A DNA stretch of 64,000 bases from Octopus vulgaris. Lineage: Eukaryota. Made by a program: the position numbers and the translations under genes. The notes beneath the pieces were generated by a model. It saw only the letters and a program-made list of their open reading frames with translations. It did no database searches and was not told the origin of the DNA. Location of the stretch: assembly GCA_951406725.2 (NCBI GenBank), contig OX597827.1, forward strand, positions 66,154,001 through 66,218,000, written 5' to 3'. Within the stretch, counting starts at the first letter, position 1. Each line of letters opens with the position of its first letter. Of the stretch, positions 1 through 64,000 are shown one piece after another.

Positions 1-227
1 TCCAGATCAGCAAGGAAGCAACGTCAGACAGCTGTAGTATCTTATCCGCTTATGTGATTGTGGACTAGAGAGATACCAATATCCAGATATCCAATGCAAT
101 AAGATTTAAGTCAATCAAATTACCGTAATGAGGGATGTACCTTCTACGAAGATAAGAATCTCACCAATAACACGGAATTCATACCTCGTAAATATGCACT
201 CATTTTGGTAACTTGATGAAATAGTTA

Positions 228-44518: not shown

Positions 44519-44844
44519 CTTTTTTTAATTCTTTCAGTCATTTGACTGTGGCCATACTCGAGCACGACCTTTAGTCGAGCAAATCGAACCCTAGACTTAT
44601 TCTTTGTAAGCCTAGTACTTATTCTATCGGTCTCTTTTGCCGAACCGCTAGGTGAAAGGGACGTAAACACACCAGCATCGGTTGTGAAGCGATGATGGCG
44701 GGGACAAACACAGACAAACAAACATATATACACGTATATATACATATATACATATATACAACGGGCTTCTTTCAGTTTCTCTCTACCAAATCTACTCACA
44801 AGGATTTGGTCGGCCCGAGGCTATTATAGAAGACACTTGCCCAA
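44519..44844 (-). mobile_element. Family-B SINE (5' truncated)
   Basis: Tail and body match the other B copies. Confidence 0.88.
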
Positions 44845-44990
44845 TATTTATTCTATCTGTCTCTCTTGCCTAACCGCTAAGGGAAGTGAAGGGGACGTAA
44901 ACACACCAGCATCGGTTATCAAGTGATGTTGGCGGGACAAACACAGCCACACAAACATACACACACGCACACACACACATACACACATAC

Positions 44991-45028
<38 letters not shown>

Positions 45029-45063
45029 TTTACTTTTTTAAGCAGCAGAAAATTCAACAAAAT

Positions 45064-45101
45064 CTGTTACTCTGAGTTTCTCGTTGCCGTTCATCAGACA
45101 G
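45064..45101 (-). ncRNA. Minimal type-I hammerhead ribozyme motif (probably decayed)
   Basis: CUGU-CUGAUGA-ACG(GCAA)CGA-GAAA-CUC(A)GAG-UA-ACAG: helix I, conserved core, GCAA-capped helix II with an A.A mismatch at its base, tiny helix III, GUA site. Confidence 0.72.
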
Positions 45102-45116
45102 TTTTTCTAGCAAAAA

Positions 45117-45153
45117 CTGTCTGATGAACGGCAACGAAAACTCAGAGTAACAG
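45117..45153 (+). ncRNA. Mirror copy of the minimal hammerhead (1-nt deletion before GAAA)
   Basis: ctgt ctgatga acggcaac gaaa actcagagta acag. Confidence 0.65.
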
Positions 45154-45439
45154 ATTTTGTTGAATTTTCTGCTACTTAAAATAAAGCATATTACTCTACC
45201 ACTGGTATTTGAGTACTCTTTTTTCCACCTTGTTTCACATTTATGTGTTTACTCCGGTATATATATATATATATATATATAAATACATATACACGACGGG
45301 CTTCTTTCAGTTTCCATCTACAAAATCCACTCACTAGGCTTTGGTCGGCCCGAGGCTATAGTAGAAGGCACTTGCCATGCACGGTTATCACTAATCCTAT
45401 TGAACCGTTTAATTTGCATTTACCTTTAACGGCATACAC

Positions 45440-55313: not shown

Positions 55314-55713
55314 TATTTCAGCAGTTTAGAAGAAATGTTAGAAATGAGAAAGAATGGTTTCTTTTCATATTTGATTCGATTCAAGCATTTCGATTTCAAA
55401 TACGACTCAAAACTTCTAAATTTTATCCTTCAGTGAGTCAATACGTAATGTATTAATTACATTAGCGATGCCTTTCAAATTATAAAAGTGTTCGGAATAA
55501 ATTTGAGGATTTTTATATCCGTATATGCGTTCTGTATCAAAATTCCTCTAAGTTCAACTTCGCTTTTCACCACTTCAGAGTGAATAAAATATGGACCTCT
55601 GAAGAACTATCACCTCTTGCTTCGAGGTGGTCCAGAAAATGTATTTTTGTTTAAATCACGAAGTTTTAGCCCTAATCAGTGTTTAGGTCTGAGCAGAATT
55701 ACATAAGCTGAAA

Positions 55714-63702: not shown

Positions 63703-64000
63703 GACACACACAAAGTACGGGGTTTAGTTCACAGGTGATCTAAACGATTAGGTACTCTAGGTATGTGCTGTAACGGATTACTAGGGGTCCAAGGTTATAG
63801 CCGAGACGGTAGTTATGGAGCCATTGCAGATTTCCAATGCAACGGATATATAATTCTTAAACAGGATGTTAAACATTAAGGCAAGGGAAGCATCTCAAGT
63901 CATATACAATATTATTACAAGAAGAATTCAACATATTACAGCTGTTTCTGAGATATCCCCGAGTATGGGCTATTCCGTCATCAGAGACAAATTGGGGAAA

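Follow-up and report, generated by a model that had tools for sequence, protein, structure and literature searches.

A 230-bp insert in a 64,000-nucleotide stretch of Octopus vulgaris DNA (the window) is, by sequence comparison, an inverted plus a direct 5′-truncated copy of the pLTR of a Penelope-like element (PLE) of the Hydra clade that is young and 3.35 kb long. Such head-to-head pLTR pairs in (TA)n probably arise by twin priming on one uncleaved RNA, the two cDNAs running off the start of that RNA. As an insert it is ordinary transposon debris, but the family is so young and so numerous that its copies allow the mechanism to be read. Element positions are counted from +1, the A located 13 nt upstream of helix I in copy L031, which places the predicted hammerhead cut at +47/48. 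The insert and its surroundings comprise the following features:

44839..44936, minus strand: left portion of the SINE-like repeat that hosts the insert (its strand was assigned by eye, using the tRNA-like head of a fuller copy in L005)
44937..45027, no strand: SINE tract of (CA)n followed by (TA)n, the left target flank
45028..45106, minus strand: inverted short-end arm, element +84 back to +9, with 3 extra bases near its outer end
45064..45101, minus strand: type I minimal hammerhead motif in the family form, predicted cut between 45068 and 45067
45105..45106, no strand: head-to-head junction; two T's assignable to either arm form a 2-nt microhomology
45105..45257, plus strand: direct long-end arm, element +2 to +155
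45117..45153, plus strand: hammerhead motif predicted to be inactive, 1 nt being missing at the helix II/GAAA boundary
45187..45257, plus strand: tail of ~70 nt, spanning the two insertion end points (+84/89 and +156)
45258..45291, no strand: (TA)n, the right target flank
45293..45376, minus strand: right part of the host SINE-like repeat, truncated

The insert occupies 45028–45257, between (TA) runs at 44987–45027 and 45258–45291. The fold-back described in an earlier note on this DNA is real: inverted arms at 45036–45106 and 45112–45181 enclose a 5-nt centre and are complementary over 44 nt at 98% and 29 nt at 97%. The RNA of the whole insert was predicted to fold as a single hairpin of −117.7 kcal/mol (z −17.9; equally stable shuffles, 0/200), which agrees with the proposal that a long hairpin would mask the ribozyme fold. 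Because any read-through RNA would fold into this hairpin, the window copy was probably dead on arrival. In tandem copies the tail sequence runs on into an open reading frame (ORF); no ORF piece of the family was present within the 64-kb window.

Two SINE halves flank the insert colinearly, placing it in the internal TA tract of the SINE, as first reported. Nesting in a SINE proved not to be a family trait: among the 30 best copies, the window copy was the only one with a colinear SINE, and 23/30 had no SINE piece within 200 bp. A (TA) run followed 122 of 135 arm 3′ ends, and a TA-type run stood on the left in 30/30 best copies (by eye), in agreement with the suggested TA-targeting Penelope-like family. 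SINE-specific targeting was rejected, as copies insert in (TA)n generally, and the SINE nesting of the insert is incidental. The SINE-like repeat has several copies within the window, and those at 44541–44841 and 44839–45376 are adjacent, the first uninterrupted and the second truncated and interrupted.

A 32-nt motif of the family had 3,799 exact matches in the genome and its reversed control had 0, indicating an abundance above chance. A DNA search with the insert found at least 40 places at 97–100% identity (40 of 990 candidates scored). Genome-wide, there were at least 4,179 arms and 579 loci with both arms separated by no more than 30 bases. From same-strand motif pairs 3.35 kb apart we found the parent, a 3,352-bp unit encoding a 711-aa ORF that is intact in copies L031, L032, and L039. 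The arms of the insert match the 3′ repeat of this unit by sequence comparison, and the unit supports the expected linkage to an ORF of the RT/GIY-YIG type. pLTRs from partial tandems, an inverted truncated copy, and a one-sided tail were all present in the family, whose insertions resemble those of other EN+ PLEs, so the inverted pLTR arrangement was also correctly anticipated.

The 711-aa ORF contains RWK at 37, DKT at 113, CRLC at 667, CRH at 695, and YRDD, and no DKG. Pfam, PDB sequence, and PDB profile searches with this ORF returned nothing significant. An AlphaFold2 model built from 118 aligned sequences reached a pLDDT of 93.5, and its best Foldseek match was TERT 3du5 (E 1.3e-9), so on this model the single ORF would encode a telomerase-like RT. 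The C terminus carries GVVY..YTG followed by R and E/N motifs, with Y583, Y598, G600, and R609 invariant across the 118 proteins; one homologue matched the Pfam GIY-YIG domain at E 1e-5, and the ORF itself had no such match. Related proteins at E ≤ 1e-20 numbered 1,060 of 7,996 scored. The CxCx5C linker is 99–100% conserved among the aligned proteins, yet was found in only 4/20 genomic copies. At the second linker Cys, a position that is 99% Cys in the 118 proteins, the ORF copies have Phe in 15/20 and Tyr in 1. In the commonest subfamily the linker may be altered, or the element may be moved in trans.

These features (RWK, DKT, linker, CxxC, CxH, and (TA)n) point to the Hydra clade, a placement made by motifs, with likeness to the published Hydra proteins judged by eye. 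The Hydra-clade PLEs of Craig et al. 2021 (PMC8557442) are described as having a single ORF with RWK, DKT, a CxCx5C-type linker, CxxC, and CxH, together with (TA)n targets, a hammerhead near the 3′ end, an inverted truncated copy, and a one-sided tail. The hammerhead of the family is nearly that of the Hydra-2_aMil row in the same source, and an extra base on each side of stem II is another feature shared with the Hydra clade. By eye, the family is distinct from Hydra-1_Obim, which differs in both hammerhead row and protein. The family unit is also longer (3.35 kb, as against under 3 kb for most Hydra elements there), as is its tail (~70 nt, as against 30–40).

CUGAUGA occurs in the insert at 45121 on the plus strand and 45097 on the minus strand. 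Both arms had been assigned the full hammerhead layout. This held for the minus arm (CUGAUGA..GAAA-CUC-A-GAG-UA), whose motif at 45064–45101 comprises helix I, CUGAUGA, a 2-bp helix II with a GCAA loop, GAAA, a palindromic helix III, and GUA, without the outer part of the extended helix I; the plus arm is one base short at GAAA. Accordingly, the type I core (CUGANGA, GAAA, and NUH with helices I and III) is present in the family form and the minus arm and is lacking in the plus arm. Helix II had been read as damaged in this copy, with GCG-GCAA-CGC expected as the restored consensus. Since 99 of the first 100 listed matches read ACG-GCAA-CGA, the 2-bp stem is the family form and not damage, and the expected consensus was rejected; it occurred in 0/100 listed non-A variants. 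The family helix II thus consists of an A.A mismatch, then CG/CG and the GCAA loop, with no G10.1-C11.1 pair. The suspicion that the window copy is inactive was partly right, in that the plus arm is predicted to be broken, by the 1-nt loss and not by helix II. A search of Rfam at E ≤ 10 gave 28 plus 5 hairpin-type chance matches and no hammerhead.

A dimer-type hammerhead, as had been suggested, was supported in silico. Two copies of +1..+63 were predicted to fold as a double hammerhead (−28.0 kcal/mol vs 2 × −12.9 kcal/mol), whereas the predicted probability of helix III in the monomer was 0. Helix I is predicted to extend from +1 to +63, pairing +1..+17 with +48..+63. Among 44 motifs from related families, helices II and III were nearly invariant and showed no two-sided changes of the kind that covariation would leave. 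The CG/CG stem was kept in 36 and 37 of 38 motifs, with variation in both loops (II and III), N7, and the closing pair; the search patterns used for the related families forced part of the hammerhead core. CCGA replaced CUGA in 20/44 of these motifs. The extended helix I showed one G.U to A-U change, and its duplex was predicted at −6.1 kcal/mol as compared with −5.0 kcal/mol with shuffled partners.

In an older sister family (693 exact matches, helix II ACG-GGAA-CGT) we observed the same short palindromes. Its core is mostly CCGACGA (U4C) in the first 30 of the 693 matches, on contig C1. Judging from this sister family, spreading may be possible without an intact core.

There is a possible, though less probable, reading in which the hammerhead motif does not cleave and is either a relic or a signal for binding or dimerisation. 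It is favoured by a helix II of 2 bp, where all 26 Hydra rows in File S2 of PMC8557442 have 3–7 bp, by the missing G10.1-C11.1 pair and the zero probability of helix III in the monomer, by the U4C core of the sister family and the lack of two-sided covariation, and by the absence of a pile-up of 5′ ends at the cut site (see below). Against it, every core word is present in the family form; the loops, N7, and the closing mismatch vary across families while the stems stay paired (in motifs whose core was partly forced by the search); and the minimum-energy fold of the dimer is the double hammerhead.

We then turned to where the arms stop. The sample came from contig C1, where 80 stretches spanning matches listed for its first 73 Mb yielded 143 mapped arms; 2 arms from a segmental duplicate and 6 that continued into the ORF were dropped, leaving 135. 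The duplicate concerns copies L061 and L062 (contig C1, 67.41 and 67.47 Mb), which show the same insertion with its flanks twice in opposite orientation, and is a segmental duplication or an assembly duplicate. The 5′ ends of the 135 arms fell at −2..+5 (36), +6..+46 (40), +47..49 (1), further down (5), and −22/−23 (2), and the remaining 51 arms were long. Genome-wide, in counts that are lower bounds because the anchors differ in length and drop matches with one letter changed at a far position, at least 240 matches broke after +1 (90 of the first 100 being true junctions by eye), 33 after −1 (32 true by eye), 31 after −2 (28 true by eye), 14 after −3 (11 true by eye), and 31 at the predicted cut site (16 true), among at least 4,179 arms.

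With 1/135 arms ending at +47..49, the cleavage site was rejected as a 5′-end hotspot. A splice boundary was likewise rejected as the cause of the stop: there was no splice-like joint at the acceptor-like TAG (+5..+7) in the sequencing-run contigs listed, and the arm junctions keep bases upstream of it. An extra C, as a cap might leave, followed the arm in 26/28 junctions at −2, most of them readable as the partner arm's own GC; a clear extra C was found only at about 5 junctions to (TA)n. The stop at +1 lies in a motif that we take to be initiator-like. The same motif occurs 16–18 nt before the core in several sister-family copies, and some sister-family palindromes also stop at it. From these sequences we infer that +1 is the RNA 5′ end, with Pol II starting in the initiator-like motif.

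Arms longer than one unit behaved differently. We collected 68 copies with the exact pLTR-to-ORF junction, a set that misses variant junctions such as that of L031. Of these, 52 extended past −3 of the upstream pLTR, 1 stopped at +1, 1 at +47, and 7 at +78..+86. None of the 68 reached two full units, and no two junction copies lay on the same strand 3.35 kb apart. Thus, of the 53 longer-than-unit arms that got as far as +1, 1 stopped there (Fisher P 3e-8 against 36/89). That 52/53 passed +1 indicates that the sequence there is no intrinsic barrier, and long copies would then derive from templates without an end at this position, namely circles, multimers, or template jumps.

This result bears on an unlikely alternative, in which arms pile up at +1 because the foot of the extended helix I makes the enzyme pause or is a site of processing, and not because transcription starts there. 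The predicted helix does start exactly at +1. However, nearly all longer-than-unit arms that reach +1 pass the same sequence, and the initiator-like motif is found at a similar place in the sister family. A further argument against a pause is that Penelope of D. virilis is described as having its start in the pLTR, on the upstream side of an intron that adjoins the hammerhead (PMC2377424, PMC4209133).

The seven stops at +78..+86 (L179, L198, L203, L210, L219, L221, and L231) coincide with the short-end start site. They suggest a roadblock there, and the cluster would suit a circular template. The prediction from a circle that, having gone round once, only short-end arms should stall at +78..86 failed: 4/24 short-end and 3/11 long-end arms did so (P 0.65), in a test that covered 40 of the 68 arms, 35 classifiable and 5 not.

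It is conceivable, if rather doubtful, that two classes of RNA template are used: a capped linear RNA giving dead strong-stop palindromes like the present insert, and a hammerhead-made 3,352-nt circle giving the long and tandem copies. On the capped linear transcript, priming would be confined to the 5′ pLTR, after which the ORF begins, and dimer- or protein-assisted hammerhead cleavage and ligation would circularise the transcript. If true, this would be genomic evidence that a PLE hammerhead licenses productive transposition by circularisation, and the inverted pLTR would arise from obligate twin priming.

The pairing of the arm ends bears on how the palindromes form. Arm 3′ ends lie at +84 (+89 if the bases in common with the TA run are counted) or at +156. 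Among the 53 head-to-head pairs, 47 combined a short-end with a long-end arm, none combined two short or two long ends, and 6 had an atypical end. Across the pairs, partner arms shared 46 variants, whereas 2,000 shuffles averaged 8.3 and never exceeded 18, and both arms agreed at the +76 polymorphism in 46/46 pairs. Both arms of a pair are from the same source. Counted from the table of 53, both sides were long in 15 pairs and short in 38, and no pair was mixed; in 3/68 longer-than-unit arms the partner ends near the pLTR, and these may be mixed pairs. In 17 of the 38 short pairs it is the short-end arm that extends further upstream, beyond the tail arm, and 3 pairs have arms without overlap.

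One end of each type, a shared source, and the two start sites known for PAc, the Poseidon element of Anolis carolinensis (Frangieh et al. 2024, PMC11167929), together make twin priming the likely route. Both nicked target strands would prime reverse transcription on one uncleaved RNA, with +84/89 and +156 serving as two internal RT start sites, by analogy with PAc in vitro. Both cDNAs would run off the likely transcription start just upstream of the hammerhead motif, and the two cDNA 3′ ends would then be joined through the 0–4 nt of microhomology. Against this, overlapping arms on one RNA would require strand displacement, and the identity of the arms could stem partly from conversion between them. 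More speculatively, long and tandem copies may come from a template without a 5′ end at +1, a circle or multimer, which the predicted dimer-type hammerhead may help to make.

Fold-back, which was proposed for inverted PLE junctions in rotifers (PMC3846280), would instead have one cDNA (or antisense RNA) snap back at a short palindrome and copy itself. We regard this as improbable, even though CTAG at +4..+7 is a common centre, the arms share variants, and the window copy, with its tail arm to +2 and short arm to +9, is compatible with it. Where the short-end arm extends beyond the tail arm, or where the arms do not overlap, the former is not a copy of the tail-arm cDNA and fold-back is excluded; this applies to the 17 of 38 short pairs and to the 3 without overlap, and the long pairs L039 and L046 show the same mismatch of coverage. 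Still less credible is that the whole 230-bp palindrome is copied as a non-autonomous master element of its own, similar to a retrozyme or MITE, as the 579 short palindromes and the 97–99% identity and common ends of the 30 best copies might suggest, for junction centres vary by copy and contain bases that only the parent has, arms come in graded lengths of up to kilobases, and no tandem 230-bp arrays were present at the examined loci.

PAc is a close counterpart of the family. As described in PMC11167929, the PAc protein nicks and extends both strands, two internal start sites bound the tail, RNA downstream of the start sites is needed, and uncleaved RNA is used. The octopus family would resemble PAc in the two start sites that delimit the tail, in extending both strands, in using uncleaved RNA, and in lacking RNA ends where the hammerhead would cut. 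PAc belongs to another clade and has its start sites inside the ORF; it shows no strand difference in start sites, in contrast to the one-of-each rule found here, and the available part of that account describes no 5′-end pile-up, unlike the family.

In LINE-1 twin priming, two primers on one RNA lead to an inversion, and in retroviral strong-stop synthesis, a cDNA started close to the 5′ end of the RNA continues to the cap and runs off. In comparison with both, the arms described here overlap as a rule, and neither start site varies. Hammerhead pairs on opposite strands, insertion into TA, inverted pLTRs, and a pair of RT start sites have all been published before. We found no description of strong-stop or run-off PLE palindromes or of PLE twin priming in literature listings, subscription papers being outside this survey. 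How inverted and tandem repeats of PLEs form and what their hammerheads do are presented as open questions in the relevant parts of PMC8557442 and PMC11167929. The end pairing, the +1 stop, its absence in longer-than-unit arms, and the bare cut site yield sharp mechanistic predictions.

The motif also resembles the minimal metazoan PLE hammerheads described by Cervera and de la Pena 2014 (PMC4209133), which are of type I, have a palindromic helix III, and depend on dimers. Those have a long helix II with a conserved G10.1-C11.1, whereas the family has 2 bp and an A.A mismatch. The same work describes dual opposite-strand hammerheads 100–700 bp apart in metazoan PLEs and proposes a circular template; the two motifs in the window are only about 25 bp apart. 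Non-LTR retrozymes (Li et al. bioRxiv 10.64898/2026.07.22.740005) are likewise short hammerhead repeats without coding sequence that have pLTRs as their relatives, and they are described there as head-to-tail tandems, whereas the insert is a head-to-head truncation product. The retrozyme-like family considered in the earlier note was not borne out: instead of head-to-tail tandem hammerhead units we found head-to-head truncated pLTRs, and since the arms are truncated pieces of an autonomous element, a separate family of this kind is not supported.

Several other hammerhead-like sequences were observed. Copies L125–L130 represent further hammerhead families with the same helix III and a longer helix II (14–18 nt from core to GAAA). 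In L011, another hammerhead-like family has left a short palindrome, also head-to-head, to the right of the family copy, where a SINE is itself inverted around the insert. In the window, 55591–55640 (plus strand) and 63915–63995 (minus strand) contain CUGANGA...GAAA with the bases before the core pairing with those before GAAA; the folding z-scores of these two motifs were not significant.
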